From positions 2,241 through 66,240 of the forward strand of contig JAZKXR010000007.1 in NCBI GenBank assembly GCA_045611705.1: 64,000 bases of DNA. Reading direction: 5' to 3'. Numbering within the stretch: position 1 is the stretch's first letter; each line of letters starts with the position of its first letter. The translations under genes and the position numbers were made by a program. Under the pieces are notes generated by a model. The model was not told where the DNA came from. It was given only the letters and a program-made list of their open reading frames with translations, and ran no database searches. This DNA is from Alphaproteobacteria bacterium. Its GTDB lineage: Bacteria > Pseudomonadota > Alphaproteobacteria > CAAHEQ01 > UBA3637. Below, piece after piece: positions 6,497 through 38,667 of this stretch.

Positions 6497-6891
6497 TCAA
6501 ACATATCTTCGTATTCTTTTGTTTGATTGGGGTCGTTAAAGCCTTCATAAAAATCATCCAATAATAAACTTTGTGTTTTTTTCACTTTGAATTGGCAATT
6601 ATTGCCTGACCATTCCCAATCTATGACACGATCATTTTGAACAAAGACACGCAAATTGCAGTTTTTGACGATTTTGTCCACACGACCAGCCACAATATCT
6701 TGGTTATCAAAAGTATAAACTATAACGTCATAGGCAAATCTTTCGGCTTTTGTCGGAACCCCAAAGTTATCCTGTAATTCGGCCACTGTTTGACCGTAAA
6801 AGATTTGGGAACGTGAAATTTCGGGCTGAATTATAAAAGATCTGGCACAACCCGTCAGGATTAATAAAACGCATACAGCCCATTTTTTCAT
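6493..6891 (-). CDS. lipoprotein, function unknown
   Basis: Lipobox LTGC after an N-terminal hydrophobic segment. Confidence 0.45.
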   Translation of the reverse strand: MKKWAVCVLLILTGCARSFIIQPEISRSQIFYGQTVAELQDNFGVPTKAERFAYDVIVYTFDNQDIVAGRVDKIVKNCNLRVFVQNDRVIDWEWSGNNCQFKVKKTQSLLLDDFYEGFNDPNQTKEYEDMFD

Positions 6892-9563: not shown

Positions 9564-9575
9564 GGTATGATAACC

Positions 9576-11657
<2,082 letters not shown>

Positions 11658-11727
11658 TTAAAAAGCAAGAGATATTTGTGTTTTTTTGCTGTTATGCCTT
11701 GTCTGGTGGAGATTTGTTTTGCTTTAC

Positions 11728-12372
11728 TGTCATGCCCTGCCAGTCGGGCATCCAACCTACCACTGTCATGCCCGACCCGATCGGGCATCCATAAAGAATT
11801 GAATGTCATGGATCTTCGGATCAAGTCCGAAGATGACAGAGAGAGCATTGTCATGCCCAGCCTGTTGGGCATCCATCCCCCATTGTCATCCCCCACTTGA
11901 TGGGGGAACCATAAGGAATTGAATGCCATAATGGATTCTTCACATACGTTCAGAATGACGGTGGGGGGTGTGCGTCATCCTTGAGGGAGGCAGAGCCGAC
12001 CGAAGGATCCATATTAAGGACTAAAATGCCATGGATCTTCGTGTCAAGCACGAAGATGACAGAGAGAGTGTGTGGATTCTCGGGTCAAGCCCGAGAATGA
12101 CAGAGAGAGTGTTGTCATGTCTTTTCTGTTGGGCATCCATCCCCCATTGTCATCCCCCACTTGATGGGGGATCCATAAGGAATTAAATGCCATAATGGAT
12201 TCTTCACATACGTTCAGAATGACGGTGGGGGGGGTGCGTCATCCTTGAGGGAGGCAGAGCCGACCGAAGGATCCATATTAAGGACTAAAATGCCATAGAT
12301 TCTTCGCTTTGCTCAGAATGACAGGGTGAGAATGGATTCTTCACATACGTTCAGAATGACAGGGTGTTTATT
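11728..12372. repeat. dense array of REP-like GC-clamped hairpin repeats (GTCAT-stem-loop-stem-GGATCC units in both orientations), including a duplicated block of about 167 bp
   Basis: About 20 short palindromic units, e.g. gtcATGCCCgacccgatcGGGCATcc and ggATCTTCGGAtcaagTCCGAAGATgac. Block 11867-12033 is repeated almost exactly at 12131-12296. Confidence 0.7.
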
Positions 12373-12376
12373 CGGG

Positions 12377-12412
12377 CATAAAAAAACACCCCGTTGAAAC
12401 GGAGTGTTTTTT
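12377..12412. terminator. bidirectional intrinsic terminator
   Basis: A-run, then hairpin CACCCCGTT-GAAA-CGGAGTGTT, then T-run; lies downstream of the minus-strand virB2-like gene. Confidence 0.5.
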
Positions 12413-12428
12413 TTGGGATGAGTGATTA

Positions 12429-12773
12429 TTATTGCACAAATCCTGCGTCAATTCCAGGTTCACCTTTGCCTTGTGTTGCAAATTTAATCACGTAGTCGGC
12501 ACAGGCGACAATAGCCACACCGAACACCAAAGCCCACAACCATTTCCATTGGATTTTGCCCAACAAAGCGGCGGCGGCCATACCGATTAAACCAAAAGCA
12601 GCCAAAACATAGAAGACTGTTCTGACACTATTAAAAACGCCACCCAATGTACTGGCGACACCGTCTAATCCAACAGTGGCACCGCCACCACCGCCTTGTG
12701 CCCAAGCATGGCCGGCAAAGGCTACGATACCAAAGATGGCCACGATGGCCAAAGTTTTAAATAATTTTTTCAT
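12429..12773 (-). CDS. virB2: VirB2/TrbC-family T4SS pilin
   Basis: Sec signal ending AWA-Q, Gly-rich mature N-terminus, two hydrophobic helices, about 114 aa. Confidence 0.6.
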   Translation of the reverse strand: MKKLFKTLAIVAIFGIVAFAGHAWAQGGGGGATVGLDGVASTLGGVFNSVRTVFYVLAAFGLIGMAAAALLGKIQWKWLWALVFGVAIVACADYVIKFATQGKGEPGIDAGFVQ

Positions 12774-13071
12774 TTTTTATATTCCTTTCTTTTTTTATTG
12801 ATGCATCAATTCAATTCAAATTCAAAAATTTTTTGACGAATACGATACGCCGGCCAATTTTTTATTTTGATTTTCATGACTCCTTATAAGGATTGATTTT
12901 TGGTTCGGAACCATTCCAAACCATAACTACATCATAAACAAAATTTTGCCTTTGTCCAGTATTTTTTGTAAAAAAATGCAAAAAAAACAAAAATTTTATA
13001 ATTGTTAATAAATTATTAACTTTTTAATGCTTATGATTAAATCAGGTTTTAACATTCGCATCGGGGGATGC

Positions 13072-13833
13072 ATGAAAAAGTTTTTAATCGGCTGGGCTGT
13101 ATTTGGATGGGCTTTGGGTGCTGTTGCCCAAACATCTGATGTTTTGGTTATGCCGAATGCTGATGATTTTTTGGGACCCACTTATGCTATGCCGGATGCC
13201 CCTGTTTTTGTGGAAACACCCAAAATGCCCCCACAAAAAGATATTTTAAGCGAGATTTTTGGTGATAATGCATTGAAATTAAATGCTAACCAACCTGTTC
13301 AACCAATTGCGTCAAAGACAATTACGCCGACCCCCGGGCTGTATTCCCCCAAGCAAAGTATTTTGACGAAGTTGCCGGATTTACCGATGCCTCAGGTAAC
13401 GTTTGAAACGGCTGTGGATACAAAAATCACACCGATTATAAAACAACCCGAATATGCCAATAATTTATTGGCCGAATTACAAGGTGGTAAAAAAACATTT
13501 TTTTCGGCCCCTCGTGAAATTCGTCTTTCTTTTTATCCGGGGCAATCGGCTTTATCGGCCCAGGCATTGAAATGGATTAAAATTTTTGCATTGAAAGTGC
13601 GTGATGATCCGCGTTTGGTGGTGGAAATTCGTGCGTCTGATGAAAATTGGCCGTTGCAAAGCAAACGCGTGGCCTTAATGTTACAGGCTGTGACGGAACA
13701 AGGGGTTTCACGTCATCAAATCTATGTTTATAAAAGTCCGCGTGCGGGCGATAGTGTTTTAATTGGTTATGCAAAGGCAATTGATAAAGAGGTAAAAAAA
13801 GATAAAAAAAGACAAAAAACAATTAATTGGTAA
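13072..13833 (+). CDS. secreted protein with OmpA/MotB-like C-terminal domain
   Basis: Cleavable signal peptide, Pro-rich middle, C-terminus with an OmpA-like pattern (LVVEIRASDE...RVALMLQAVTEQGV). First gene of the pilus-like cluster. Confidence 0.4.
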   Translation: MKKFLIGWAVFGWALGAVAQTSDVLVMPNADDFLGPTYAMPDAPVFVETPKMPPQKDILSEIFGDNALKLNANQPVQPIASKTITPTPGLYSPKQSILTKLPDLPMPQVTFETAVDTKITPIIKQPEYANNLLAELQGGKKTFFSAPREIRLSFYPGQSALSAQALKWIKIFALKVRDDPRLVVEIRASDENWPLQSKRVALMLQAVTEQGVSRHQIYVYKSPRAGDSVLIGYAKAIDKEVKKDKKRQKTINW

Positions 13834-13893
13834 AAAAATGCTTGTATTATAAAAAAAAACAGTGTATGTTTTTTGAAAAACAGGGAGATTGAT

Positions 13894-14589
13894 ATGGTAA
13901 AAAAAATGAAATTATTAAATGCTCTGGTTGTCGGTGGTGTTGTTTTGACCGCTGTTAGTGGTTATGCTCAATCTGGTCAGTTTATTGATTGTTCAAATGG
14001 TGGCAAGGGATGCGATATGCTGTATGCTGCAGATGATGTTTTTTTGGCACCCGATTGCGTGGATTGTGTGTCCGGTGAAATTCAGGTGGAACCGGCTGTA
14101 ACCAAAACATCCTATCAACCTTTGTCTTATTCAATGCCGGCCGATACCCGCGTGGAAGTGTTGCCCAGTGGGGCTGTTCGTACGACAACAACTCAGGTTT
14201 CTGGTGTGCGAAATGGGGTAACGGATGTGCAAACAACACGCAAAGTGGAACGATTGGAAGAACAAACTTTGTCCGGCAAATGGGTTACTCATGATACAAA
14301 TGAAAAAATAGCATTTGGTGAAGGTGTTCACGATTGGGATGCGGCGCGCGGTGAAACATTGAAATCTTTGTTGACTCAATGGTCCGAAGTATCTGGTTGG
14401 ACTTTGGTTTGGAAAATGGATCGTGATTATAATTTGGAAGCCGGCGTTGTTTTCCGTGGTACATATACCGAAGTGGCCAGTGCGATAATTCGTACTTTTG
14501 CCCGTGCGAAACCGGCTCCTATCGGGACTTTTTATCGTGGTAATCGTGTTTTGGTTGTCAGTATACAGGAGGACGAGAATGCTCATTAA
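13894..14589 (+). CDS. TcpQ-like pilus-biogenesis protein (secretin-associated)
   Basis: Signal peptide; C-terminal block GWTLVWKMDRDYNLEAGVVFRGTYTEVASAIIRTF...FYRGNRVLVV resembles the TcpQ/PilL domain. Position immediately 5' of the secretin matches tcpQ-tcpC. Confidence 0.45.
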   Translation: MVKKMKLLNALVVGGVVLTAVSGYAQSGQFIDCSNGGKGCDMLYAADDVFLAPDCVDCVSGEIQVEPAVTKTSYQPLSYSMPADTRVEVLPSGAVRTTTTQVSGVRNGVTDVQTTRKVERLEEQTLSGKWVTHDTNEKIAFGEGVHDWDAARGETLKSLLTQWSEVSGWTLVWKMDRDYNLEAGVVFRGTYTEVASAIIRTFARAKPAPIGTFYRGNRVLVVSIQEDENAH

Positions 14590-16234
14590 AAAATTATCCA
14601 TTGCTTTGTTGGCGGGTTGTGTTGCCTTATCCGGATGTAATCAGCATGTGGTTGAGGCAAATAAGCGTATTGAGGAAACTTTGTCCCGTGTGGAAGAATA
14701 CAAAGAGGCGGCCCAAATTCCGGATTTGCCCGAAGTAACCGATACCGTTCGTATGCAAAACGATATTTACTTGGGTAACCAAAGCGTCAAAATTATGGAA
14801 GGCGATTCTTTACCCAGTTGGTTGGAAAAAGATGACGGTATCACAATGGCTGTATCCGAAGATGCGACTTTGCCAAATATCTTGCAGGAAGTTTCCGATA
14901 TCACGGGTATGAATATCCGTTTGGATGATTTGCGTCAAGAAAATGCAATTCCTGAAAATGCTGTGCCGTTGAAATATTCCGGTTCTTTAAGCGGTTTGTT
15001 GAATTATTTGGCCAATCGTTTTAATGTGTATTGGCGTTATAAGGATGGTGCGATACATTTTTATACAAAAGAAACGCGTGTCTTTACAATTTATGCTTTG
15101 CCGACCGAAACATCTTTGCAGGCCAGCATTACAGGTGCAACCATGGGTGAAAGCGGTGGCGGTAATGCAACGTCCAGCTTGTCGGTCAATTCCGATTTGA
15201 AAATTTGGGAAAGTATTGAAGAAGGCGTCAAACAAGTTGTTGGCGAAAATGGTCAGTTATCATTTTCCCGTGTGGCAGGTACGGTAACCGTGACGGCCAG
15301 TCCTTTTATCGTGCGTAAGGTTGCGGCATATGTGGCCAATTGGAACGAAAAATTGTCCCGTCAGGTGGCCATTACGGTTCGTATTATTCAGGTTACCTTG
15401 AATGATAAAAATAACTATGGTTTGGATTTGGACGCAGCATTTAAAAACAGTGTATTGTCGCCGTTGAAATTTGCAACAACGGTTGTGGAAGAGGGGGCTT
15501 CGGCCATTACCGGCAACTTGTCAATGACATTATTGAAACCCGGCAGATTGAGCGGTTCCAAGGCAATTATTAATGCTTTATCCAGCCAGGGAAAAACAAG
15601 ATTGTTGAATACATCTTCTGTTACAACATTGAATAACAAGTTGGCACCGGTGCAAATTTCAACATCCAAAAACTATTTAAAGGAAATTACCGTTACAACA
15701 TCGGGCAGCGGTGATGATAAATCAACTGATACCGATTATGAAGTGGATACTTTAAACTACGGTTTTACAATGGAGGTTTTGCCCCGTATTTTGGATCATG
15801 GTCGCTTAATCGTTTTGTTTAATTTATCCATTACCGATTTCTTGGGCTTTGAATATGCCGGTTCTGCCGATAAAAAATCAGAATCAGAATCTTCCAGTTC
15901 CTCAGGTGAGGGAACAACGGGGGATTCAAGCAGTGATTCAAGCAGTGATTCAGAAAGCGATTCGGAATCCGAAGTTACCAAATTGCAATTGCCGACAATG
16001 CAGATGCGTGGTTTTGTGCAAGAAATTGCCATGCGTTCAGGTCAAACATTGGTCTTAACTGGATTTGAAGAATTAAGAGAAACAACTTCTTCATCCGGTA
16101 TTGGAAAGGCCAAAATGGGATTATTGGGTGGAAAAGCCTATAATGATATGGAACGCAAGGTTTTGGTGATTACAATGACACCTGAGGTTTTAAGATCTCC
16201 CTTGTCACAAGAAGCCTTAATGCGGGATTATTAA
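14579..16234 (+). CDS. outer-membrane lipoprotein secretin (PilN/TcpC type)
   Basis: AGGAGG RBS, lipobox LSGC, C-terminal secretin domain (TTLNNKLAPVQIS...KVLVITMTPEVL), internal S/D/E-rich low-complexity insert. Confidence 0.8.
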   Translation: MLIKKLSIALLAGCVALSGCNQHVVEANKRIEETLSRVEEYKEAAQIPDLPEVTDTVRMQNDIYLGNQSVKIMEGDSLPSWLEKDDGITMAVSEDATLPNILQEVSDITGMNIRLDDLRQENAIPENAVPLKYSGSLSGLLNYLANRFNVYWRYKDGAIHFYTKETRVFTIYALPTETSLQASITGATMGESGGGNATSSLSVNSDLKIWESIEEGVKQVVGENGQLSFSRVAGTVTVTASPFIVRKVAAYVANWNEKLSRQVAITVRIIQVTLNDKNNYGLDLDAAFKNSVLSPLKFATTVVEEGASAITGNLSMTLLKPGRLSGSKAIINALSSQGKTRLLNTSSVTTLNNKLAPVQISTSKNYLKEITVTTSGSGDDKSTDTDYEVDTLNYGFTMEVLPRILDHGRLIVLFNLSITDFLGFEYAGSADKKSESESSSSSGEGTTGDSSSDSSSDSESDSESEVTKLQLPTMQMRGFVQEIAMRSGQTLVLTGFEELRETTSSSGIGKAKMGLLGGKAYNDMERKVLVITMTPEVLRSPLSQEALMRDY

Positions 16235-16244
16235 AGGAGTCCGT

Positions 16245-17603
16245 ATGGAAAAAGAAGAACAACCGGCGAATTTAATTGATCAATTGGAAACAACACGGGA
16301 TGAGGTTGTCAAACGTTCCTCAACCGGTGTTGTGACCGTTGATGGTCAAAAATATGCGGTTGGTTTGGTATGGCAACCGGTTCAAAATCTGGACGACCCG
16401 ATTGTTGAAATTCGTGAATCTGCCGACAGTGAAACAGGTGCTGATTTATACTGTTTACGTCCGGCGGCAACCCCGCAATACGGTATGGGGTACAGCGAAT
16501 TGGGGCATCGTGATGGTATGCCTTCGTTGGCGGCCGCTGTGGCATCTGTTTTAACCGAATACAGTTCTGTTTGTGCCGTTTTCCGTGTGGATGAAGGATG
16601 GTGGTTGATTGCCATTCGTAATGATTTGATTTTGGCCGAAGAAGATATTGTCTTTGCCACAGAGGTTGAAGCTCAACGTGCCTATGCCGCTATGATGGCG
16701 GTGCCGGATTGGGGGATTCGTATTGTCCCACCGGAATGGAACATAGAAGGTGTTCAACAGGAAGATTTAACAAAACTTGTTCATGGTACACGTAAGGTCC
16801 GTTTGCAATCCATCAATGCCCAAAGACGAACAAAGTTTTTATTGGCTATTGCTCTTTTCATTGTTTTGGGCTTGGCATATTTAATATGGATGTTGGTTCA
16901 GGTTTTAAGCGAGGTGTTTACAGAAGACCAGGATATCATCCGTCCGCCGCCAACGGGTACACAATTGGGGGTTCAGGCCCCACCGCCAACCGCCACGCAT
17001 AAGCCATGGGAAGTTTTGCCGGATATGAAGCAATTCTTTGACCGTTGCTGGAATGCCGCTTATCAGGTTCGGTCGGTTATTGTGCCGGGATGGACAATGG
17101 GTATTATTCAATGTACAAAAGGTGAAGTTTTAACATCATGGCAATTGGAAAATCCGAAATTGGGACGTTTGTCATGGATGCGTTATGGTGTCAATGAATA
17201 TCAATTGAGTCCGAATTTTAAAATTGAAATTAAATCTGACGGAACATCGGCCACCGGCATGGTGACCTTTGATACGAAACTGTCCACGGTTTCATCTGAA
17301 CCAAAAATGACACCGATAGAATTGGAAGAAGATATTCGTGAAATTCAACAGGCAACGGGTTTAAGTTTTCAATTTAATCGCCAAACACTGTTGGATCCGC
17401 CCAATCGGGCCGATGGAACACGTCCACCCAATCAAAAAACATACACATACTATTCTTTTGTGGTTTTATCACCATATGCACCAATGGAATGGTTGTCGTT
17501 TTTTGAAAAGTTTTCTGGTTTGGAAATAACAAAACTGGAATATACGCCGTCTGGCGATGCAACAAACAAATGGAAGTATGAGGGAAGAATCTATGCAAAA
17601 TAA
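16245..17603 (+). CDS. bitopic inner-membrane pilus assembly protein (PilO/TcpR-D-like)
   Basis: Single central TM (LLAIALFIVLGLAYLIWMLV); operon position between the secretin and the PilP-like gene. Confidence 0.35.
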   Translation: MEKEEQPANLIDQLETTRDEVVKRSSTGVVTVDGQKYAVGLVWQPVQNLDDPIVEIRESADSETGADLYCLRPAATPQYGMGYSELGHRDGMPSLAAAVASVLTEYSSVCAVFRVDEGWWLIAIRNDLILAEEDIVFATEVEAQRAYAAMMAVPDWGIRIVPPEWNIEGVQQEDLTKLVHGTRKVRLQSINAQRRTKFLLAIALFIVLGLAYLIWMLVQVLSEVFTEDQDIIRPPPTGTQLGVQAPPPTATHKPWEVLPDMKQFFDRCWNAAYQVRSVIVPGWTMGIIQCTKGEVLTSWQLENPKLGRLSWMRYGVNEYQLSPNFKIEIKSDGTSATGMVTFDTKLSTVSSEPKMTPIELEEDIREIQQATGLSFQFNRQTLLDPPNRADGTRPPNQKTYTYYSFVVLSPYAPMEWLSFFEKFSGLEITKLEYTPSGDATNKWKYEGRIYAK

Positions 17604-18507
17604 AACATTTTTAAAAACATTGTTCGTGATTTCTTTTTTAACTGTACCGGCTTGGGTAATGACGGTTGATGCATCTGTTCCATCGCAACCAGATGCTTCA
17701 AGATCATTAGGATTATCGGATATTGATTTAAGCAATAAAAAAACTGTTGATTTTTCTGCTCGTACATCAATGGATGAATTGGAATTAACAACCTTGCCCG
17801 GTGTCAATGAAACAAATATTACAGGGCCGGCGGCTTTTTCGGAATCTGTTGGCAGCAATGATTATCCCAGTGAACAATTATTGGGTCGTTTGAATCCGGA
17901 TGTTTTTGAAGAAATGGCTGCATTAGAAAGGGATAAAGCCTTTTTAACTTTGCAAGTTCAAAAGGCAGAATTGTCTAATAAATTGGAAGATTTACGTGCG
18001 ACATATCGTCAAAATCGGTTGGATGAAATCGCCAGACGTGAAGATGTGATTCGGACGCGTATTCAATGGTGGCAGGAACAGGAAAAATTGCGTTTAGAGG
18101 CCGAAAATCAACGTCAGGAAGCCGAAGAATTAAAAGCTCAGCGTCAAGAAGCCGAAGCCTTGAAAGAACAATTGGCCGAAGCACAACGTGCTGTTTTGGA
18201 AGCACAGGCACAGGCAGAAGCACAAGCTCGGGCACAACAACAGCAAGCTCAATTAGTGCCAGAGGCAGTGGTTATTGATGAAACAACAGATGCCGATTTG
18301 GAACCCATTGTTTCGCATCCGTCATATGTTTTGGTGGGTGTAAAGGGAACTCGCGGTAATTTACAGGCTCGTGTTAAAAACACATCTTCCGGAGAAATAT
18401 CAAACGTTCGTACGGGTGAAAATTTGTTTGGTGAGGTTGTAACGGCGGTTACACCAGACAGTGTTATTTTATTGCGTGATAATTCCGAATATGTGATTAC
18501 ATTTTAG
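17593..18507 (+). CDS. PilP-like pilus assembly protein (N-terminal anchor, coiled coil, C-terminal beta domain)
   Basis: N-terminal hydrophobic segment, long QA-rich coiled coil, C-terminal VLVGVKGTRGNLQARV...VILLRD resembling the PilP secretin-binding domain. Confidence 0.4.
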   Translation: MQNKTFLKTLFVISFLTVPAWVMTVDASVPSQPDASRSLGLSDIDLSNKKTVDFSARTSMDELELTTLPGVNETNITGPAAFSESVGSNDYPSEQLLGRLNPDVFEEMAALERDKAFLTLQVQKAELSNKLEDLRATYRQNRLDEIARREDVIRTRIQWWQEQEKLRLEAENQRQEAEELKAQRQEAEALKEQLAEAQRAVLEAQAQAEAQARAQQQQAQLVPEAVVIDETTDADLEPIVSHPSYVLVGVKGTRGNLQARVKNTSSGEISNVRTGENLFGEVVTAVTPDSVILLRDNSEYVITF

Positions 18508-18512
18508 TTTGA

Positions 18513-20480
18513 TTGGATTTTGAAATGGTGGAAGAAAATCAACAAATCGTTTCTGAAACTGTGTCAGCGGGTGGGGTTGAAAAATCCGGTGAGGTTTTTT
18601 CATCACCGATATTACCAACCCAGAGTATGCCTGTGGATGAAAACCAGGCGTCACCACAAATTCAATCGGATGAAACCCAATCATTTTCGGCGGCGGATGT
18701 TTTGGCCCCACAGCAAGATTTATCCGAAACTTTGGATACCTTAAAGGAATATTCCGAACAACCTCAAACACCTCAGCCGGCACAGGTGGTACCCGAAGAA
18801 ATTACTGCCCAAACAAAATTGACAGTAGAAGAAGATCCACATGCCGAAGAAGATGATAAAAAAGAACTTTATTCATATGATATTGATCCAAATGATCACA
18901 GTTCCGTTCGTTTTTTAAAGGATTTATATGATAATTCAAACGAATGTATGACATCTGAAACAGGTTCTTTTCCCGTAAATGAAGAAACACGTAAGTTGTT
19001 GGCTTTGTTTTCAAACGGTCGTTTTTTTGTGGTGGAAGAAAGCAAATATGACGGTCGTGTTTTGGGATTTGAATATTTGGCCAAAAAAAGACGTTTACAG
19101 ATATCTGATCCCGAATATGTGACGCCTTCGGAATTGTTGGCTATTTATACCTATGCCGATCAAATTCGTACAGCAACGGATACGATCAGTGCCGAAGAAG
19201 TTCAGCGTCAAACACGTATGCAACGGGACTTTGTAACAGTGATTTCCCGTGCCGCCATTAACCATGTATCTGATATTCACATTGTTGTGGCCGATCACAC
19301 AACGGTTTTATTTCGTGTAAACGGTTTAATGCAAACAGAAATGGAATATAACAAGGATTGGGGTGAAAGCTTTGTTCGTGCGGCCTTTGCCTCGGCGGAT
19401 GTTTCGGATTCCAACTATGCTCAAAATGAATATCAGGCGGCTCAAAAATTGGGGCGTACGCCTTTGCGTGGTTCGGGTGGACGATTGGTGTTGCCTAAAT
19501 CTGTTTTGGGTTTGCGTTTGCAATTTAACCCGATTGCCTTTGGTACCCGCTATGTGATTATCCGTTTATTGTATGCGGATGAAAATGCGGCCTCAGGCGA
19601 TCAAGCATTGGAAAGTTTGGGCTTTTCGGATTATGATATTGAAAAATTCAGATATTTGCGTTCATTGCCAACGGGAATTGTGGTCGTATCTGGACCGACT
19701 GGTTCGGGTAAATCCACAACATTGCAACGTAATATGATTTCTATGTTAAAGGAACGCAACTATGAAACCAACCTGATTACGGTGGAAGACCCGCCCGAAT
19801 ATCCGATTCCCGGTGCTCGTCAGATGCCGGTGACCAACGCGGGTGTTGAAGAAGCCAAAGACCGTGAATTTACAAAGGCTTTGTCGGCGGCTTTGCGTTC
19901 TGACCCTGATTCATTAATGATCGGTGAAATTCGTACGCTTGCGGCGGCCGATTTGGCCTTCCGTGGTGCTTTGTCAGGCCACAACGTATGGACAACTTTG
20001 CACGCCAATACGGCTTCGGCGGTTTTGTTGCGTTTAAAGGATATTGGTGTGGAAGATTTTAAATTACAGGATCCATCCATTATGCGTGGTATGTTGGCCC
20101 AACGTTTGTTCCGAAAAGTTTGTCCGTTTTGCCGAGTGGCAACCAAAACACAGTTAAATCATCCGGCCGTTCAACGTTTGCGTGAAGCCTATGGTGATAT
20201 CGGTTTGGAAAATACTTATTTGCGTGGGGCCGGTTGTGAAGAATGTGATTTTCGTGGCGTCAGTGGACGTTCGGCTGTGGCAGAATTTATTTTACCCGAT
20301 ACAACCTTTTTGGATTTGATGTTAAAGGGGGAAACGCAAAAAGCATTGAATTATTGGGTGACGGATTTACATGGTCGTACCTTGAAAGAAGGGGCCACAG
20401 AGCATATGTTTAAAGGTGAGTTTGATATTGAAGAAGTGGAACGTTGGTGCGGACAACTCAATCAACCGAACCTGATTTAA
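18513..20480 (+). CDS. GspE/PilB/TcpT-family secretion ATPase with a unique acidic N-terminal extension of about 230 aa
   Basis: Walker A GPTGSGKST, Asp box, His box, C-terminal tetracysteine (CPFC...CEEC). Confidence 0.85.
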   Translation: MDFEMVEENQQIVSETVSAGGVEKSGEVFSSPILPTQSMPVDENQASPQIQSDETQSFSAADVLAPQQDLSETLDTLKEYSEQPQTPQPAQVVPEEITAQTKLTVEEDPHAEEDDKKELYSYDIDPNDHSSVRFLKDLYDNSNECMTSETGSFPVNEETRKLLALFSNGRFFVVEESKYDGRVLGFEYLAKKRRLQISDPEYVTPSELLAIYTYADQIRTATDTISAEEVQRQTRMQRDFVTVISRAAINHVSDIHIVVADHTTVLFRVNGLMQTEMEYNKDWGESFVRAAFASADVSDSNYAQNEYQAAQKLGRTPLRGSGGRLVLPKSVLGLRLQFNPIAFGTRYVIIRLLYADENAASGDQALESLGFSDYDIEKFRYLRSLPTGIVVVSGPTGSGKSTTLQRNMISMLKERNYETNLITVEDPPEYPIPGARQMPVTNAGVEEAKDREFTKALSAALRSDPDSLMIGEIRTLAAADLAFRGALSGHNVWTTLHANTASAVLLRLKDIGVEDFKLQDPSIMRGMLAQRLFRKVCPFCRVATKTQLNHPAVQRLREAYGDIGLENTYLRGAGCEECDFRGVSGRSAVAEFILPDTTFLDLMLKGETQKALNYWVTDLHGRTLKEGATEHMFKGEFDIEEVERWCGQLNQPNLI

Positions 20481-20492
20481 GGATGGTGAAGC

Positions 20493-21614
20493 ATGCTGCA
20501 AAAAAAAGAAGAAATAAGATTAAAAGGCGGTGTTGTAGAAAACATCAACATGGCTTATGCTCAACTGATGGTGCGTTTACATGCCGAAGATCGCTTGGAA
20601 ATGTATCGTAAATTATCGGCTCTTTTGAAAAACCGATTTTCTTTGATGGATGCGTTGGAAAGATTGTATCAAATTGCATCAAAAGATGGTAAAAGTCCAT
20701 CGGATACGATGGCGATGGCGGTTGCCAACTGGATGACCAAAATCCGAAACGGTCAAACATTTTCTGAATCTTTACGTGGTTGGGCACCACAAAATGAATT
20801 GTTGCTGTTGTCTGTGGGTGATGTGGCGAATTTGGAATTAGCCCTGGAACACACAGTGCGTGTGGTGGAAGGTATGAACAAGATGCGTTCCTTGGTTTGG
20901 GGTGCAGTGGCATATCCTTTGTTTTTGTTGTGTATGGTGGCCTTGTTGATTTGGGGTGTGGCCAAATTCATGGTGCCACCGATGAAGGAAGCCGTGCCGA
21001 ATTTACAATGGAAAGGTGTGGCCAAAAGTTTGATTGATTTATCCAACTTTGTTGACCAACACCCGATATTATTGTTTGCCATTGTGCCGACAATCAGCAT
21101 ATGTGTAATGATTACATTTCCATATTGGAAAGGCTTGGGACGATCGACTTTTGATAAATTTCCGCCATGGTCCATTTATCGCGGTTTTGTTGGGGTCAGC
21201 TGGCTGTTGGCTCTGTCGGCTTTGGTGCGTGCAGGTATGCCGGTTTCCAAGGCTGTGCGTTCATTGATTGGTGATGATTCCAGCCCTTATTTAAAAAGCC
21301 GTTTAAACCGTGCTTTGATGTTTATCAGTAACGGTGATAACTTGGGTGAAGCGTTATATCATACCAAATATGGTTTCCCTGATGATGAAGTGATCGGCGA
21401 TTTGCGTATTTATGCGGAATTGGATACCTTTGCCGAAGCGTTGGAAAATTTGGCAAACGGTTGGTTGGAATCATCCGTTCGCACCATCGGGAAACAGGCG
21501 GAAATTTTAAACTCAATCGCTATTTTATCCATTGCCGGTGTTATCGGTTGGGTGGTTTGGGGAACCTTTGCCATGCAGGATCAAATGGTCAGCGGTATGG
21601 GCTTGGGCGGTTAG
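20493..21614 (+). CDS. GspF/PilC/TcpE-family polytopic platform protein
   Basis: Two GspF-like repeats with TM segments; 373 aa; RBS AAGGATGG. Confidence 0.7.
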   Translation: MLQKKEEIRLKGGVVENINMAYAQLMVRLHAEDRLEMYRKLSALLKNRFSLMDALERLYQIASKDGKSPSDTMAMAVANWMTKIRNGQTFSESLRGWAPQNELLLLSVGDVANLELALEHTVRVVEGMNKMRSLVWGAVAYPLFLLCMVALLIWGVAKFMVPPMKEAVPNLQWKGVAKSLIDLSNFVDQHPILLFAIVPTISICVMITFPYWKGLGRSTFDKFPPWSIYRGFVGVSWLLALSALVRAGMPVSKAVRSLIGDDSSPYLKSRLNRALMFISNGDNLGEALYHTKYGFPDDEVIGDLRIYAELDTFAEALENLANGWLESSVRTIGKQAEILNSIAILSIAGVIGWVVWGTFAMQDQMVSGMGLGG

Positions 21615-21790
21615 GCCGGTTTGGCATTGCCGATATTTAAGGCACAAACATCCAAAACGTTTTTGATTTTTGAAACAACTTTATCGTCTTTGTTGTTGGG
21701 GGTAATGGCGGTTAAAACGCTGGCCCCCGTCACAATAGATGTTAAAGCGGTGATAAAGTCATAAAAATGATTGATGATAAAGTTTAACAT
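21611..21790 (-). CDS. 59-aa small membrane protein (holin/antiholin-like candidate)
   Basis: MLNFIINHFYDFITALTSIVTGASVLTAITP...; its stop overlaps the pilR-like stop by 4 nt. Below the 60-aa cutoff of the ORF track. Confidence 0.3.
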   Translation of the reverse strand: MLNFIINHFYDFITALTSIVTGASVLTAITPNNKDDKVVSKIKNVLDVCALNIGNAKPA

Positions 21791-21799
21791 TTAATTCTC

Positions 21800-22081
21800 C
21801 TATTTTAAAATAAGGTTTAACAAAGCCATAATCAGGGCAGTGCCTGTTGTGGCCACGATAATGGTAATTAAATTTTTAATTGGCGTAATTTCATTTTTCA
21901 AAACAAACTCTTGTTTTAAATTGGCATACAGTGTGTCAACCTGTTGTTTTATTTCACCAAGTTGTTGTTGCAACAATGAAACAGACGCCATTAATTTGCC
22001 GATTTCTATGGATAAGCTGGGGGCGGGCATATCAGACTCCTTAAACATCTTTATAAAATAAATGATTGCCGATTTGGGCAC
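21800..22081 (-). CDS. small coiled-coil protein with C-terminal TM (holin/spanin-like candidate)
   Basis: C-terminal hydrophobic ITIIVATTGTALIMALLNLIL; immediately downstream of the lysin. Confidence 0.3.
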   Translation of the reverse strand: MPKSAIIYFIKMFKESDMPAPSLSIEIGKLMASVSLLQQQLGEIKQQVDTLYANLKQEFVLKNEITPIKNLITIIVATTGTALIMALLNLILK

Positions 22082-22445
22082 ATGGGATTAAATGTCTGGC
22101 CCACAGGGGATGACATTCAAAAGCATGATAATGTGTGGCCCCGTTTGTGTTATCCGTCAATACACCGGCCAAAGCTCTTTTAACAATTCTTTGGCAAATT
22201 TGATAAACGGGATTTTCGGATAAATCGCTTGTTAAAATTTTGTAATTGACATCATTGTGATTCCAACATGAAAATTGTTTGGGCTTTAAACATACTTCGC
22301 GGATGTTTTTGCCCCACCACATCGGATGGATCAGATTCATTTTGACACGATTTAAAATAACATTGGCAATGGCTTCTTGACCGGCCAAGGATTCGCCACG
22401 GGCTTCACCGTAAATTGTTTTGGCAAAGATTTCTTCTTCTGTCAT
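22041..22445 (-). CDS. SleB/CwlJ-family cell-wall hydrolase (phage lysin)
   Basis: TIYGEARGES...ANVILNR motif of the Hydrolase_2 family. Confidence 0.75.
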   Translation of the reverse strand: MTEEEIFAKTIYGEARGESLAGQEAIANVILNRVKMNLIHPMWWGKNIREVCLKPKQFSCWNHNDVNYKILTSDLSENPVYQICQRIVKRALAGVLTDNTNGATHYHAFECHPLWARHLIPCAQIGNHLFYKDV

Positions 22446-22457
22446 TTATTATTCTCC

Positions 22458-23849
22458 TTATCGCCACAATGGGCGTTGTTTATAAAAAAGCGGTAATGTT
22501 TTCAAACGAACAGGTTCACTCAATAAACATCCCGCCACGGCATCCAAACCGTCATCATGGGTATTGCCTGATGTGTTAAAGTCTTGCATTTCGCGAATAA
22601 AAGGTGTTTTTAAAACACTTTCGTGGGCATATAGGTTACCGTTTAAAAGCGGTGGTTCTATGGCCCCTAAAATGCGTTCGGTTTTGTTTTGTCGGGCTGT
22701 TTCTTCCAATACGGCCACAGCCATACGTTGGCGGGATAATTCCTGACGTAGCAAGGCCGGTAAAAATCGCCCGATACCGTTTGTTTCCAAATGAATGGCC
22801 GGCAACATTAAATCTTTTAAAAACTGAACAACCTTTTGACATTGATAAGAGGTGGCTTCTTCATTTTCAGGAACAGTTAGATATAATAATTGATGAATAT
22901 AATAAAAACCATTTGCATCCGAAAAAACACCCGCCACGACACTTTTATCGCCACCGACTTTACCAAAGGCTGGATCCCACCAGGCACATCCCGAAACTAA
23001 TTGATGTTCGTTTAATTTTAAGACAGCCTGACCATTGGCTTCGGTGTAATCCAAATCATCCGAATAAATTTTTAATTTTCTTTCATCCAAGCGTTGTTTA
23101 TCAAAGGCGACCGCCTCTAACATCATTTGGCTTAAAAATTTAAAACGAGGAGTTGTTCTTTTAATTTGATTTATTTTATCCACAGAAAATCGTTCGGGCC
23201 AAGTGGCCAAGCCTGATGCATCCATAATCGGTAATTTTAAAAGCTTCCAATTTGGTTGATTGTAAATACTTTGGCGTGTATGGGGTGTGCCGATATACAA
23301 AATCAATCCATCGGGTGATAGGATATAATCCAATTCGGCCAGTTTTTGTTTTAAATCTTCACGTTTGCCGGCTGTATCACATGTTTTGGGTACTTCCACA
23401 TCATCACATAAAATGATATCAGCCCGACACCCTGTGATGTTGGCGCTTAAGCCACGTGCCAAAACGGACGGATCACGACCACCGGCAGGACGTTGAACGG
23501 TCAGTTTATCACCGGCCCATTCTTCGGCCTTTTCTGGTTTTAATCCTTGACACAGAGGATGGCGTTCCAAAATATGTTTGATATGACGCACCATTTTTTG
23601 TGCCAAGGCGTGATCGGCCGATAAGACCAATAATCTTAAATTGGGATTTTGCGTTAAAACCCACGCACAAAACAAACCGACAATGGTTGATTTTCCTGAA
23701 TTTCGAAAGGCCATTAAAACGGCCTGTCTGCGTCCTTGTGAAAAATAAAGTTCGGATAAAAAACGACCCATTATCTTATGGTGATTTGGTATGGATAAAT
23801 TTTGTATTTTATCCCAAATCCATACGAATTCCAGAAATGTCGTTTTCAT
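22458..23849 (-). CDS. phage terminase large subunit
   Basis: Walker A MAFRNSGKST near the N-terminus; C-terminal nuclease-like region with acidic residues; position after the structural genes. Confidence 0.75.
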   Translation of the reverse strand: MKTTFLEFVWIWDKIQNLSIPNHHKIMGRFLSELYFSQGRRQAVLMAFRNSGKSTIVGLFCAWVLTQNPNLRLLVLSADHALAQKMVRHIKHILERHPLCQGLKPEKAEEWAGDKLTVQRPAGGRDPSVLARGLSANITGCRADIILCDDVEVPKTCDTAGKREDLKQKLAELDYILSPDGLILYIGTPHTRQSIYNQPNWKLLKLPIMDASGLATWPERFSVDKINQIKRTTPRFKFLSQMMLEAVAFDKQRLDERKLKIYSDDLDYTEANGQAVLKLNEHQLVSGCAWWDPAFGKVGGDKSVVAGVFSDANGFYYIHQLLYLTVPENEEATSYQCQKVVQFLKDLMLPAIHLETNGIGRFLPALLRQELSRQRMAVAVLEETARQNKTERILGAIEPPLLNGNLYAHESVLKTPFIREMQDFNTSGNTHDDGLDAVAGCLLSEPVRLKTLPLFYKQRPLWR

Positions 23850-24099
23850 CTTTTAAATCCTCTTTGGCCTGATGAATTAAATCCAATAAATCGGTTTGAA
23901 TGGTCGGTTGTTTTTTTGGGGCTATATCCAAAATTTTAATCAACAAAGCAATGTGCAATAATGCTGATTTACATGCACTGTGATAGGCATTAAAATCTTT
24001 GGCATTCATGGGGCAATCGGCATTGGCAAAGGATTGATATGTTTGAACGGCTTTTTCCAAAAAAGGTTTCATTTTTTTCAGATAGGCCTTCATACGCAC
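23809..24099 (-). CDS. small phage protein (possible small terminase subunit)
   Basis: 96 aa, immediately 5' of and overlapping the large terminase, as with T7 gp18. Confidence 0.25.
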   Translation of the reverse strand: MRMKAYLKKMKPFLEKAVQTYQSFANADCPMNAKDFNAYHSACKSALLHIALLIKILDIAPKKQPTIQTDLLDLIHQAKEDLKDENDISGIRMDLG

Positions 24100-24576
24100 C
24101 TACTTAATCATTGTTCGGCTGATACCGCTGGCTAAATCACCCAAAGTGCCATACATATTATTTTGGCTGGCCTGATTGATGCTGTTTAATTTTAACAGAT
24201 TTGTCCCAGTGCTGTGATTCAAACTGTTTAACAGGGCATCTGATGATATTTTGGCCTGGTTAACCAAGTATTTATCCTCCATATCATATTCCCTTTGCAT
24301 AGCGTTTAAATAAGTTTGCCCTGTTCCGGATTGACCGGATAATCCCGATGCTCCTAGTTTAGCTTTATAGCTGGCCTGTTGTTGTGCCAACAGATTTTTA
24401 TTTTTTCGTTGTCTTTCGTTTAAAGCCAAACGTGCCTGTTTGTCCTGTAAAGCGGCCTGTTCGGCGGCATAGGCATTGGATCGTTTGATGGCTTTTTTTT
24501 GACGATCGGCATTGGCTTTTGTATAATAGGCCGACCCCAAGATTGAAACGACTGTGGCAATGACTGCTGCTTCCAT
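24100..24576 (-). CDS. small virion/internal protein-like (N-terminal TM, Q/A-rich)
   Basis: N-terminal hydrophobic helix; lies between the gp12-like and terminase genes, where T7 has gp13 to gp16. Confidence 0.3.
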   Translation of the reverse strand: MEAAVIATVVSILGSAYYTKANADRQKKAIKRSNAYAAEQAALQDKQARLALNERQRKNKNLLAQQQASYKAKLGASGLSGQSGTGQTYLNAMQREYDMEDKYLVNQAKISSDALLNSLNHSTGTNLLKLNSINQASQNNMYGTLGDLASGISRTMIK

Positions 24577-24577
24577 A

Positions 24578-26503: not shown

Positions 26504-27072
26504 GTGCGTACCTCAATCAAAGAAAAATCCTGAAAACAGGGGTTTGTGGATTGTTGCGAATCCACCAATCTGGCCTGTTTTAATTCTTCGGCGGCAATTT
26601 TACGCATATAATCCGTGCGTGTTGTGCTTTCGGTTAAAGGCAGACAAAATTCGCTGGCCAATTGGGTGATAAAGGCCTTTACAAAAAAAGGCGGAAAAGT
26701 GCTTTCATCGGGTTTTTCAATATAATTTAAAATGACTTCCGATGTATTGGCGTACAGGCATTTGCCCACGATTTTATATTGCAATCCCGAACTTTTGATA
26801 TTTTGTCCGGCCGATAAAATACGCAAACAATTATTTGGTAATTGAAAGGCGTATTGATAATCCGAAACAGGTTTATTTTCCAATCGGGCCAAACTTTTTT
26901 GTTTTAATGCAAAACGCCACGGATAGGATGCCAATAAGTTTTCCAAGGTCGGTTGATACAATTGGGATGCCACGGTGGCTTCACAGGATGTTTCATCAAA
27001 AGAAGAAATACTGTTGGCCCCCAATTCCACCAAAGCACGAGAGCATAAATCAATGTTTGTGTATGACATATT
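26500..27072 (-). CDS. tail tubular protein A (T7 gp11-like gatekeeper)
   Basis: N-terminal pattern LCSRALVELGANSISSFDETS...ASYPWRFA parallels T7 gp11 (NDILASIGEPPVSTLE...QSRGWTF). Start taken at MSYTNIDL. Confidence 0.6.
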   Translation of the reverse strand, partial: NMSYTNIDLCSRALVELGANSISSFDETSCEATVASQLYQPTLENLLASYPWRFALKQKSLARLENKPVSDYQYAFQLPNNCLRILSAGQNIKSSGLQYKIVGKCLYANTSEVILNYIEKPDESTFPPFFVKAFITQLASEFCLPLTESTTRTDYMRKIAAEELKQARLVDSQQSTNPCFQDFSLIEVRT

Positions 27073-27138
27073 GTTCCTTTTGTATGAAAAAATCCCCCTT
27101 GGGATAAAACCAAAGGGGGACAAATGGTAAAGATTTTT

Positions 27139-27996: not shown

Positions 27997-28106
27997 ATAG
28001 TTTTAAGTTAAAAAATCCTTATCAAAGGTTGTGAAGAAAATCTTCGCCTTCATTCGGGCTGGTTAAGGTGCGGGGCACTGGGCTTATCCGCGAAACAAAA
28101 AAAGCT

Positions 28107-30963: not shown

Positions 30964-30978
30964 GTCAAACTCCTTTAT

Positions 30979-36231: not shown

Positions 36232-38667
36232 ATGAATCTAGATGCCGGAATTTTTGATTACATTGTAACAACAGCCACAGCCCCGTCTATGATCGTGGTT
36301 ATTTTTGGTGTTTTGGCAGCATTGTTTTTGATTTTTGTTTTTATTTCTAAATTCGGTGAATTGGTTTTGCCAAAGCCTGTTGAAACTCGTTTGGCAAACT
36401 TTTTGCCCTTTGATTATTTGGATGAAGATGGTGCGACAATTCATTTGCATAACGGTGGGCTTGCTCGTGTTTTTGAAGTTAAAGGTGCCGATACAACTTT
36501 GGTGTTGCCCGAAGATCGTGAAGTTTTAATGGAAGCACGAAAACGTTGGATTGATTCAATGGTTGAATTACAGGTTGTTGCCCGTGTCGTGACTTTGCGT
36601 GAAAAAGTGGAATTAAAAGAACCGGAAGCTTATAAAGACAATAAGTTGTTAAAAGGCGTTGCCGAACTTTGGATGGAAAATTTAAATCGTATTTTTAATA
36701 ATAAGCATTATATTGTTTTGTCCATCAATGACCGTAAAGATGCCATGAAAGATTTAGATCAGGCTTGTGGTGCTTTGACCAGTATTATGGATGTGTATGA
36801 ACCGAAATTGCTCAGCGAAAAAAACAATGCAAATAATGAAGATAAAAGTCCGTTTTGGTTGTTTGCAAAAATGATCAGCCCTTTGTCCCGCCCAAAACCG
36901 GTGGTTCATTTTGAAAAAAAAGATCGTTTAAATGATTTACTAACCGCTGATTATGTTCATTTTACAAAAGATGACGGTTTGATACGATATTTTAACGGCA
37001 ATCGTGAAAAACTGTCCATCACAATGGGGATTCGCAAACCCGGTGATTTTATGGATGAACAAATGATTGCCGATTTTTTAAGTTTGGATATAGAATTGAC
37101 TTTATTGCATAATATTAAAGGCGTTCCCAGTTTTAAAATTATGCCCGTTGTAATGCAACAACAAAAAATGGCCTATTATACAAGCTTTTCACAAAACGTT
37201 GTTGAACAGTTTGAAGAGGCTAAACAGGCGTTGGATTCCAATGATGTCAATGCCCAAAGTTGGAATGAATACGCACTTAGCATTATTTTATATGGTGAAA
37301 GTTTGGAAGAATTGAAATTTGGTCAGGAGGAAGTGGAACGTATTTGTCGTATGTATAACGTGACTCCTGTTCGTGACGGTTGGGCGACTCAGGCAGTGTT
37401 TTTCAGCCAATTTCCAACCTTTGATATTTATCCCAGAACATACCAGCATTTATCACGTGTTGTGGCCTGTGCAACAATGATTGATAAAGCCCCGATGGGA
37501 CGCACAAAATCCGATTGGGGACCGGTTCCTATCAGTTGGTTCAGAACGATTACAGGCACCCCCTATGCATTCCAATTTCATGTATCCGAAGAACCCTATG
37601 CTGTGGCTCATACGGCCTTGATTGGTCCGACCGGGCAAGGTAAAACAACTTTTTTCAGCTTTATGGCCGGTCAGGCTTTGCGTATTCCTGATTTAAATAC
37701 ATACTTTTTTGACCGCAATAACGGTGCCAAAGTTTTTGCCATTATGAATGGGGCTCCTTATGTGCGTTTTGATGGTGGCGAAGAATCTGTTTCATTAAAT
37801 CCGTTTGCCATTCCCGACACACCGGATAACCGTTCTTTTTTAAGAATGTGGGTGCGTGATATTACCGGTGGGAATGATGCTGTATCAGAAGCCGAAATCG
37901 CCCGTGCGGTCACAACGGCCTTTGAATATTTGCCCCAAAATGAAAGATTGTTAAAAAATTTATATAAATCCTGTTTTGCCCCCAACAGCTTTATGCGTCG
38001 TGAACTCAATCGTTGGATTGATACGGATCAATATGGTCGTATTTTTAATTCACCAACGGATAATTTGGATATTGACAGCCGTTATATGTGCTTTGATTTT
38101 ACCACGATATTCCAAGATCCCATATTGGCACCGGCCGTGATTAGCTATGTGATGCACCGAATTCAAACACTTTCTACGATCAAAGGCACGCCCAGTATGA
38201 TTATGATCGACGAAACGGCCCCGATGTTGGAACATCCCATGTTTAAGGACAGCTTTATTGTCGGTTTGCGGGAAGGTCGTAAAAAACGTCAGGCTTATTT
38301 ATGTGCGTTCCAGCAACCCAAATTTTTGGATGAAAACGGTTTGGGGGATGTGATTCGCGGTCAATGTCAAACGGTTATCTTTTTCCGTAACCCACAGGCC
38401 AACGAATCGGATTATGCCACATGGAACCTTTCACCACGCGAAATGAACTTTATTTTGGGTAAAGAATTTACGGACCGCAAATATGCCATTTTGGTGTCCC
38501 GTCCCGCTATTCATGAATCGGTTATTTTGGATGTGGATTTGTCTGGTTTAGGTCCATATTTAAAGATTTATTCATCGGGTAATAAAAACGTTTTATTGGC
38601 CGAAAAATTGGCCCGTGAATTATCAGATACAGACCAAATCGTTCAAGAATATCTCAAACGTGCTTGA
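36232..38667 (+). CDS. virB4: type IV secretion system ATPase VirB4
   Basis: 811 aa, N-terminal TM, Walker A GPTGQGKTT, CagE/TrbE/VirB4 architecture. Confidence 0.9.
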   Translation: MNLDAGIFDYIVTTATAPSMIVVIFGVLAALFLIFVFISKFGELVLPKPVETRLANFLPFDYLDEDGATIHLHNGGLARVFEVKGADTTLVLPEDREVLMEARKRWIDSMVELQVVARVVTLREKVELKEPEAYKDNKLLKGVAELWMENLNRIFNNKHYIVLSINDRKDAMKDLDQACGALTSIMDVYEPKLLSEKNNANNEDKSPFWLFAKMISPLSRPKPVVHFEKKDRLNDLLTADYVHFTKDDGLIRYFNGNREKLSITMGIRKPGDFMDEQMIADFLSLDIELTLLHNIKGVPSFKIMPVVMQQQKMAYYTSFSQNVVEQFEEAKQALDSNDVNAQSWNEYALSIILYGESLEELKFGQEEVERICRMYNVTPVRDGWATQAVFFSQFPTFDIYPRTYQHLSRVVACATMIDKAPMGRTKSDWGPVPISWFRTITGTPYAFQFHVSEEPYAVAHTALIGPTGQGKTTFFSFMAGQALRIPDLNTYFFDRNNGAKVFAIMNGAPYVRFDGGEESVSLNPFAIPDTPDNRSFLRMWVRDITGGNDAVSEAEIARAVTTAFEYLPQNERLLKNLYKSCFAPNSFMRRELNRWIDTDQYGRIFNSPTDNLDIDSRYMCFDFTTIFQDPILAPAVISYVMHRIQTLSTIKGTPSMIMIDETAPMLEHPMFKDSFIVGLREGRKKRQAYLCAFQQPKFLDENGLGDVIRGQCQTVIFFRNPQANESDYATWNLSPREMNFILGKEFTDRKYAILVSRPAIHESVILDVDLSGLGPYLKIYSSGNKNVLLAEKLARELSDTDQIVQEYLKRA

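Follow-up and report, generated by a model that had tools for sequence, protein, structure and literature searches.

A 64-kb stretch of the alphaproteobacterial contig JAZKXR010000007.1 (assembly GCA_045611705.1), called the window here and numbered from its first nucleotide in all coordinates below, contains seven co-linear genes at 13027–21614 (+), which form a pil operon according to the listing of open reading frames (ORFs) and profile searches. All seven ORFs were intact. The locus is very probably an ordinary chromosomal type IVb (T4b) pilus locus of the R64 type in a split arrangement, the pilins of which would be encoded elsewhere in the genome. The first-pass annotation of this DNA had described the gene content and order of a T4b machine, and both were reproduced by the profile searches. 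It had further offered two explanations for the lack of a neighbouring prepilin and prepilin peptidase, namely a non-canonical substrate or a remotely encoded pilin and peptidase. The pilins of relatives, found either after pilR or at remote sites, favoured the remote pilin over the non-canonical substrate, and a remote peptidase is presumed along with it.

The ORFs of the window were searched with Pfam and NCBIfam profiles, and the gene order of relatives, sampled at the species level with one genome scanned per species, was tabulated by phmmer for 84 loci; the IncI1 queries came from the E. coli plasmid pF16EC0618-1 (CP088371.1). Families were assigned to six of the seven genes. The TcpQ gene matched PF10671 with an E value of 5.8e-17 (62 bits against a cut-off of 27), and phmmer aligned its product with a TcpQ-family protein of Bosea (2e-14), TcpQ of Thalassospira (5e-9) and IncI1 PilL (1e-3), the last of which matched the TcpQ-like proteins of relatives at 6.5e-11. 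The ATG at 13894 is the likely start of this gene. The secretin was recognized by TIGR02520 (PilN) with an E value of 3.9e-77 and 260 bits, slightly below the NCBI equivalog cut-off of 287.65, and by PF00263 above its cut-off, and as GspD it scored 36 bits, which is far below its PilN score. The likely start of the secretin at the ATG at 14579 yields the lipobox MLIKKLSIALLAGCVALSGC, a lipoprotein signal like that of R64 PilN, and the protein contains an acidic Ser-rich insert. In phmmer it matched IncI1 PilN (1.5e-37) and Thalassospira PilN (8.6e-63, 92% query coverage), and in tblastn PilN was matched in 2838 plasmid records, mostly conjugative.

The PilO2 protein has one transmembrane (TM) segment and covered positions 2–419 of the 419 in PF06864 (PAP_PilO; E 3.5e-28, 99 bits against a cut-off of 26.7); its tblastn matches landed on plasmid genes annotated as pilO2, and IncI1 PilO was matched at 6.5e-7. 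The PilP-like protein begins with an N-terminal TM/signal segment, followed by a long coiled coil rich in Glu, Gln and Ala, and ends in a beta domain. The protein matched TIGR03021 at 1.5e-3 (19.5 bits against a cut-off of 34.65) and, faintly, the GspC HR domain 7oio, and alignment of its family profile with IncI1 PilP by hhalign gave a probability of 64.5% and an E value of 6.3e-5 over only 56 C-terminal columns. The ATPase matched PF00437 (1.2e-63) and IncI1 PilQ (1.4e-39) and had 3312 homologs at E ≤ 1e-20, many of them 60–93% identical; its core is 70–80% identical and conserved in an alignment of 41 members. The N-terminal extension of about 235 aa (18513–19220) varies greatly in length within the clade, where the proteins measure 570–1019 aa. 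The platform protein matched PF00482 (4.4e-23) and IncI1 PilR (6.9e-33). The GspE-type ATPase followed by the GspF-type platform, co-linear with pilN, pilO and pilP, was found in the same order in loci L088, L089, L092 and L093. Thus, the earlier assignments to TcpQ, PilN, PilO, the ATPase and the platform were right, and the one to PilP stayed under the TIGR03021 cut-off.

The first gene of the operon had been labelled OmpA-like, a label that found no support in sequence searches of Pfam, NCBIfam or PDB. Its product gave no match in Pfam, also when 27 family members were searched, nor in NCBIfam or a PDB profile search. The gene was present in every related locus with enough upstream flank, and the C-terminal region of the protein is conserved, with a beta-alpha-beta-alpha-beta pattern in a low-confidence single-sequence AlphaFold2 model (predicted local distance difference test score, pLDDT, of 46). 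This predicted pattern is compatible with an OmpA-like domain without demonstrating one, and the model was too poor to support a fold search.

The strongest evidence on the substrate came from the relatives. The synteny comparison proposed in the first-pass annotation showed the seven genes in the same order across the 84-locus table, in every related locus with a long enough flank. The position of pilins was then counted in the 66 loci whose sequence extends 3 kb or more past pilR. Class-III prepilins followed pilR directly and on the same strand in 15 of them, in one to four tandem copies; a pilin was present somewhere within about 10 kb in 25/66, there was none within that distance in about 40 of 66, and a phage-like module occupied the place after pilR in 11/66. 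The pilR-linked pilins are 150–210 aa long and begin with SG|RSMVEMLGVLAIIGVLS, with G at −1 and E at +5; the N-terminus of the family, SG|RSM(V/I)EMLGVLAI(I/V)GVLS, is almost invariant. Two linked pilins matched PilS (PF08805; 4e-14 and 2.5e-7), Bundlin (1e-10) and N_methyl in Pfam, and IncI1 PilS matched the pilins of relatives at 5.6e-10 by phmmer. In four loci (L067, L069, L075 and L081) the pilins were followed by a PilT-like second ATPase of about 325 aa.

One family pilin, used as a query, retrieved 2163 homologs, and in those that were read the first ~45 residues were almost identical and the globular part was divergent. Many of the remote family pilins are short (120–145 aa), and some are labelled “type II secretion system protein”, PulG or PilE by NCBI and JGI. 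The pilin P0249 is encoded on contig 8 of the metagenome-assembled genome (MAG) GCA_045660045.1, the pil operon of which lies on contig 4 with no pilin nearby (loci L016 and L091). The pilin P0356 stands alone among the housekeeping genes rpsU, efp and rne; it comes from a MAG with a VirB4 that shares 79% identity with the one in the window. It had been stated beforehand that a prepilin and peptidase pair elsewhere in the genome would make this an ordinary split locus, and the pilin half of that arrangement was seen in the relatives, where GCA_045660045.1 has operon and pilin on separate contigs. The split of pilin and operon is the normal, majority state in the clade, and we infer that the pilin of the window's own genome is likewise encoded elsewhere. 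Very large proteins with class-III signals (472–901 aa) were also noticed in three related loci (L009, 683–3109; L035, 17753–20458 (−); L056, 12813–14231 and 15581–17293 (−)); one of these proteins contains Cys-rich domains of the EGF-like type, and all may serve as tip adhesins in the role of PilV.

Relatives of the pil ATPase are encoded in at least 563 species-level genomes, and the best 80 of these were all “Alphaproteobacteria bacterium” MAGs from gut, rumen or faeces of human, yak, sheep, goat, roe deer or rabbit, with ATPase identities of 56–92%. The first-pass annotation had set the locus in a Rickettsiales/Holosporales-like background, for which no support was obtained: the titles of these 80 records, which give no order-level taxonomy, contained no Rickettsiales or Holosporales record. 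In comparison with the 92% relative (L005), the ratio of nonsynonymous to synonymous substitution rates (dN/dS) was 0.04–0.24 for all seven pil genes, with 0.08 for gene 1 and 0.04 for pilR. The genome may belong to an RF32-like lineage. A literature search on RF32 or CAG-239 gut Alphaproteobacteria with pili or type IV secretion systems (T4SS) returned nothing relevant.

Several observations weigh against an ordinary R64-type pilus. The first gene is without an assignable family, and the PilP assignment scores under the family threshold. A motif scan found no class-III prepilin in any frame of the 64-kb window, and an HMM (hidden Markov model) built from 37 family pilins gave no match there, in agreement with the earlier statement that no prepilin lies nearby. 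The same statement on the peptidase was upheld too, as Peptidase_A24 matched none of the about 58 larger window ORFs scanned. The motif G.GD.K[LFMYIV], phmmer with IncI1 PilU and the Thalassospira peptidase and a screen for multiple TM segments plus G.GD likewise detected no prepilin peptidase in the window or the 87 related loci (~1.7 Mb); the motif is so strict that it misses T4b peptidases like IncI1 PilU (GTGDLWL), and phmmer is weak for membrane proteins as divergent as prepilin peptidases. In addition, equivalents of PilM, PilT (transglycosylase), PilU and PilV were not found in the window or related loci by phmmer with IncI1 queries, and to our knowledge Arg at position +1 of a pilin is unusual. 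Because the peptidase searches were empty and phmmer is weak here, the conserved G(−1)/E(+5) signal is the sole ground for the A24 peptidase step; the presence of this signal in dozens of pilins suggests that an A24 peptidase encoded elsewhere would process them.

A working scheme for the R64-type pilus may be put forward on this basis. The core spanning the envelope would comprise the PilL/TcpQ-like protein, the PilN secretin, PilO2, the PilP-like protein, PilQ and PilR, plus one clade-specific secreted protein, and its substrates would be class-III prepilins of one family with the SG|RSMVEMLGVLAIIGVLS N-terminus and a globular domain of the PilS/bundlin type. A remotely encoded A24 prepilin peptidase would cut after Gly, PilQ would drive the PilR platform and so lift the pilins out of the inner membrane, and the fibre would exit via the PilN secretin, which PilO2 and PilP may tie to the inner-membrane parts.

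The pil operon is accompanied by a divergently transcribed VirB2/TrbC-type pilin gene. Its earlier description, including the Sec-type signal, was confirmed: the product scored 34.6 bits with PF04956 against a cut-off of 27.9 and has the Sec signal MKKLFKTLAIVAIFGIVAFAGHAWA|Q and two TM helices. When adjacency within 1.5 kb of the first pil gene was scored with a family HMM in 69 related loci, a divergent TrbC stood beside the pil operon in 51, two copies being present in 16 of those 51, and the operon was kept without an adjacent TrbC in 18. Since the adjacency persists while the genes beyond TrbC differ between lineages, the linkage of TrbC with the pil operon is conserved and not accidental. 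In 11 loci TrbC is followed on the same strand by VirB3, and in most of these by VirB4 as well. In the window, virB2 (12.4 kb) is split from virB3-virB4 (35.9–38.7 kb). The first-pass annotation had named this pair, and its VirB4 was upheld by PF03135 (1.4e-13; homologs 70–96% identical), whereas the ORF proposed as virB3 gave no family match and keeps its name from position and topology; virB3 homologs are placed directly behind TrbC in the 11 related loci. The pair is isolated between xthA and rpmI-rplT, and it is likewise isolated among housekeeping genes in three relatives (L085–L087). VirB6, VirB8–VirB11 and VirD4 were not detected among the window ORFs scanned, and a VirD4-like protein (PF02534; NCBIfam VirD4/TraG, E 1e-37 to 1e-40) was found in one related MAG (L091). 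There, positions 5348–11584 of JAZRDB010000008.1 (GCA_045660045.1) encode a ribbon-helix-helix protein, an uncharacterized 377-aa protein and the VirD4-like protein (743 aa) beside the pilin P0249, together with a protein having a weak T7 tail-fibre match, a mix which indicates that T4SS, type IV pilus and phage-like genes are interleaved at a second locus too.

On the simplest reading TrbC serves a separate T4SS of the VirB type as its VirB2 pilin, and VirB2 is not needed as the T4b filament because TrbC heads virB2-virB3-virB4 in relatives. The most likely reason for the pairing of T4b pilus and virB2 is an ancestry or regulation shared with a conjugation-like apparatus, by analogy with conjugative systems. 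Two papers (PMC9045228, PMC5297154) describe that DNA transfer by a T4SS is aided by conjugative T4b pili that contain PilS and PilV pilins, and that in IncI plasmids, TP114 and PAPI-1 the T4b pilus helps the T4SS to find or hold recipients. A wider possibility, which we put forward tentatively and hold to be unlikely, is that the T4b pilus, VirB2/B3/B4 (plus VirD4 elsewhere) and perhaps the podovirus-like head module described below constitute one chromosomally fixed, vertically inherited DNA-exchange apparatus with trbC and pil genes co-regulated from the divergent promoter region that they share, which would be domesticated, conjugation-like or gene transfer agent (GTA)-like, and not mobile.

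The persistence of TrbC beside the operon also raises the possibility of a hybrid machine, in which the T4b secretin, ATPase and platform would assemble or export the Sec-dependent VirB2/TrbC pilin, perhaps with VirB3/VirB4 extracting it, so that no class-III pilin is needed. Such a machine would agree with the divergent adjacency of TrbC in 51/69 species-level genomes despite differing genes beyond it, with the isolated virB3-virB4 pair that no other VirB genes adjoin and with the about 41/66 related loci that have no pilin within 10 kb. Nevertheless, the clade has abundant conserved T4b prepilins which, when linked, take the canonical place after pilR, and in 11 loci TrbC is the first gene of virB2-virB3-virB4, the usual order in a T4SS; the operon is maintained in 18/69 loci without an adjacent TrbC, and the VirD4-like coupling protein in the clade points to a fuller T4SS. 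Moreover, we know of no platform of the GspF/PilC type shown to handle a two-helix VirB2 pilin, and we regard the hybrid as highly improbable.

That the machine is mainly a secretion or DNA-uptake device with a short pseudopilus of remote small pilins (120–150 aa), comparable to the type II secretion system (T2SS), the competence pilus or the toxin-coregulated pilus (TCP) secreting TcpF, appears quite unlikely. The small size of many remote pilins (120–145 aa), the database names “type II secretion system protein”, PulG and PilE, the failure of phmmer to find a PilV-type adhesin and a ComM/YifB-like gene in the window (47761–49269) could be taken in its favour, but the core genes are of the PilN, PilO2 and TcpQ types and not GspC, GspL or GspM, the linked pilins match PilS and bundlin, some relatives have a PilT-like retraction ATPase typical of dynamic pili, and nothing links ComM to the pil locus. 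That the operon is the decaying, non-working remainder of an integrated conjugative element from which the genes for pilin, peptidase and adhesin have been lost is hardly credible. Seven intact ORFs under purifying selection (dN/dS 0.04–0.24) argue against a dead remnant, as do the conservation of the operon in at least 563 species-level genomes and the fact that the split arrangement is the clade majority even without the phage, against which stand the failure to find equivalents of pilS, pilT, pilU and pilV in the window and the phage-like module in the place of the pilin genes of other relatives. We therefore retain the split R64-type pilus locus as by far the best account.

The features of the locus and its T4SS companions are collected in Table 1. 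The 253-bp divergent region presumably holds the promoters of both trbC and the pil operon; a consensus scan of this region for promoters and terminators gave results no better than shuffled sequence. The hairpin just past the stop codon of trbC, which was absent from the output of the consensus terminator scan, suggests that trbC is monocistronic in the window.

Table 1. Coordinates of the pil operon, the divergent trbC gene and the virB3-virB4 pair in the window.
Feature	Position	Strand	Basis
Terminator-like hairpin CACTCCG-TTTCAA-CGGGGTG, then T run on minus strand	12380..12414	-	read from sequence
TrbC/VirB2-type T4SS pilin gene	12429..12773	-	PF04956; divergent from pil operon
Divergent intergenic region between trbC and first pil gene, 253 bp, AT-rich	12774..13026	.	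sequence
First pil gene, 268 aa, secreted protein without assignable family	13027..13833	+	conserved position in clade
TcpQ/PilL-like secretin partner, signal peptide	13873..14589	+	PF10671
PilN-type lipoprotein secretin	14498..16234	+	PF00263, TIGR02520
PilO2-type bitopic inner-membrane protein	16245..17603	+	PF06864
PilP-like protein, 316 aa	17557..18507	+	weak TIGR03021; operon position fits
PilQ-type assembly ATPase, GspE/PilB family (T2SSE)	18513..20480	+	PF00437
PilR-type inner-membrane platform, GspF/PilC family (T2SSF), last operon gene	20493..21614	+	PF00482
Putative virB3, 97 aa, two TM helices	35929..36222	+	position and topology only
virB4 ATPase	36232..38667	+	PF03135

The housekeeping genes ligA, a YdbH-like gene, xerC and priA lie upstream of the locus. 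Downstream, pilR is followed by a podovirus-like module on the opposite strand, a CI/LexA-like repressor, a membrane protein, a CorA-family gene, xthA, virB3-virB4 and rpmI-rplT. The podovirus-like module is ~10.5 kb long (21611–31386 (−) plus 31489–32124 (+)) and convergent to pilR, and it encodes small membrane proteins, a cell-wall hydrolase, terminase, nozzle, capsid, scaffold and a portal of the T7 type, with the CI/LexA-like repressor beside it; no integrase or replication genes were seen in it. It was found at the same site in 11 related species-level loci, with dN/dS values of 0.04–0.15 and of 0.51 for one small ORF, p96. Its divergence parallels that of the host genes in the comparisons with L005, L007 and L002, and in the comparison with L006 the module is 95–100% identical in amino acids while the pil genes are 60–90% identical, which indicates a recent exchange of the module. 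The portal shares about 32% identity with pelagiphage portals, and with those on many IMG/VR contigs (mostly 4–25 kb) it shares about 50–55%, one of them reaching 89% and one 60%. The module may be a small site-specific prophage or a GTA-like element. The possibility that a prophage had split the pil operon was considered and rejected: the genes past the module up to virB3-virB4 include no pilins, and the split arrangement is common in phage-free loci as well.

The gap between ligA and trbC (11728–12360) holds a cluster of short palindromic repeats resembling repetitive extragenic palindromic (REP) sequences or miniature inverted-repeat transposable elements (MITEs), with a 228-nt unit in two copies (93% identity) and 30–54-nt units in three copies each; GGATTCTTCACATACGTTCAGAATGAC occurs three times in it against 0 expected. 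A 102-aa ORF at 11621–11929 (−) overlaps the REP-like repeats and is probably not a gene. At the start of the window, 3–1646 (+) runs off the 5′ end and encodes the last 547 aa of a secreted Cys-rich protein of 962 aa, to which the full-length protein P0361 is identical and which has CGCPKDKDxNQG repeated in tandem as well as the HExxH motif HENIH. The next gene (1871–2845) also encodes a Cys-rich secreted protein, and both may be secreted metalloprotease or adhesin-like proteins; neither is a pilin. The ORF at 3–1646 was tried as a large pilin and discarded, as full-length P0361 has a Sec signal and the HExxH motif and no class-III signal.

With the relatives taken into account, the paradox of a pilus machine without a pilin vanishes, and the locus is not evidence of a new secretion principle. 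Instead, hundreds of uncultured alphaproteobacterial species of gut and rumen carry, as a conserved part of their chromosomes, the R64-type T4b pilus, which is mostly known from conjugative plasmids and islands, and its pilin family is recognizable by the SG|RSMVEMLGVLAIIGVLS start. The persistent linkage to virB2, and sometimes to virB3/virB4, hints that the pilus and the T4SS cooperate, as they do in the conjugation of IncI and PAPI-1, and for hosts that are uncultured such adhesion or DNA-transfer machinery is one of the few handles on their gut lifestyle. The residual interest of the locus lies in the conserved chromosomal pairing of T4b pilus and virB2 and in the podovirus-like module next to pilR.

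Among known systems, the thin pilus of R64/IncI1 (pilI-pilV) and that of the IncI2 plasmid TP114 have the same order of PilL/TcpQ-like protein, PilN, PilO2, PilP, PilQ and PilR, and in relatives of the window a PilS-type prepilin comes next, in keeping with the IncI1 order pilL-M-N-O-P-Q-R-S-T-U-V. The IncI1 proteins PilN, PilO, PilQ and PilR were matched by phmmer with the values given above, and the linkage to T4SS genes is a further likeness; sequence identity is only about 22–28%. Unlike IncI1, the window system is chromosomal and vertically inherited across the clade and not plasmid-borne, its operon has an extra first gene without known family, its pilin genes are detached, and PilM, the PilT transglycosylase, the PilU peptidase and the PilV/shufflon were not found for it by phmmer. 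The PilP-like protein of the window has double the length of R64-type PilP (about 150 aa) and contains a coiled coil, and the neighbouring T4SS genes are VirB2/B3/B4 (P-type), whereas the IncI plasmid compared is typed MPF_I (mating pair formation type I). TCP of Vibrio cholerae and the bundle-forming pilus (BFP) of enteropathogenic E. coli share with the window the TcpQ-domain secretin partner and the general T4b architecture, and the linked pilins of relatives match Bundlin, but the secretin of PilN type (TIGR02520) and the presence of PilO2 place the locus in the R64-type group. The TCP and BFP operons encode their own peptidases, TcpJ and BfpP. In contrast to a T2SS, no Gsp-specific families were matched in the Pfam and NCBIfam searches, and the secretin fits PilN over GspD.

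The best plasmid matches were the Thalassospira xiamenensis M-5 plasmid (NZ_CP004389.1) and pANAM02 of Bosea sp. ANAM02 (NZ_AP022849.1), in which TcpQ, PilN, PilO2, a hypothetical protein, the ATPase and T2SSF are followed by a major pilin or a second ATPase, with no TrbC neighbour annotated. The Thalassospira cluster runs from a peptidase through TcpQ, PilN, PilO2, the hypothetical protein, the ATPase and T2SSF to a major pilin, and thus carries its own prepilin peptidase and major pilin, along with a second ATPase, beside T4SS genes of the DotD/TraH type, none of which were found in the 64-kb window. The Enterobacter cloacae plasmid pSD21_54kb (NZ_CP093917.1) has the order PilN, PilO2, PilP, ATPase, T2SSF, major pilin, second ATPase and PilV; it differs in its PilV shufflon adhesin and PilM, in being a mobilizable plasmid and in its gammaproteobacterial host, and its order equals that of pilR, pilin(s) and PilT-like ATPase in the distant relatives L067, L069, L075 and L081. 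Because the annotated plasmid clusters and the pilins of relatives share this order, the system is best regarded as a genuine R64-type (PilN/PilO2) T4b pilus.

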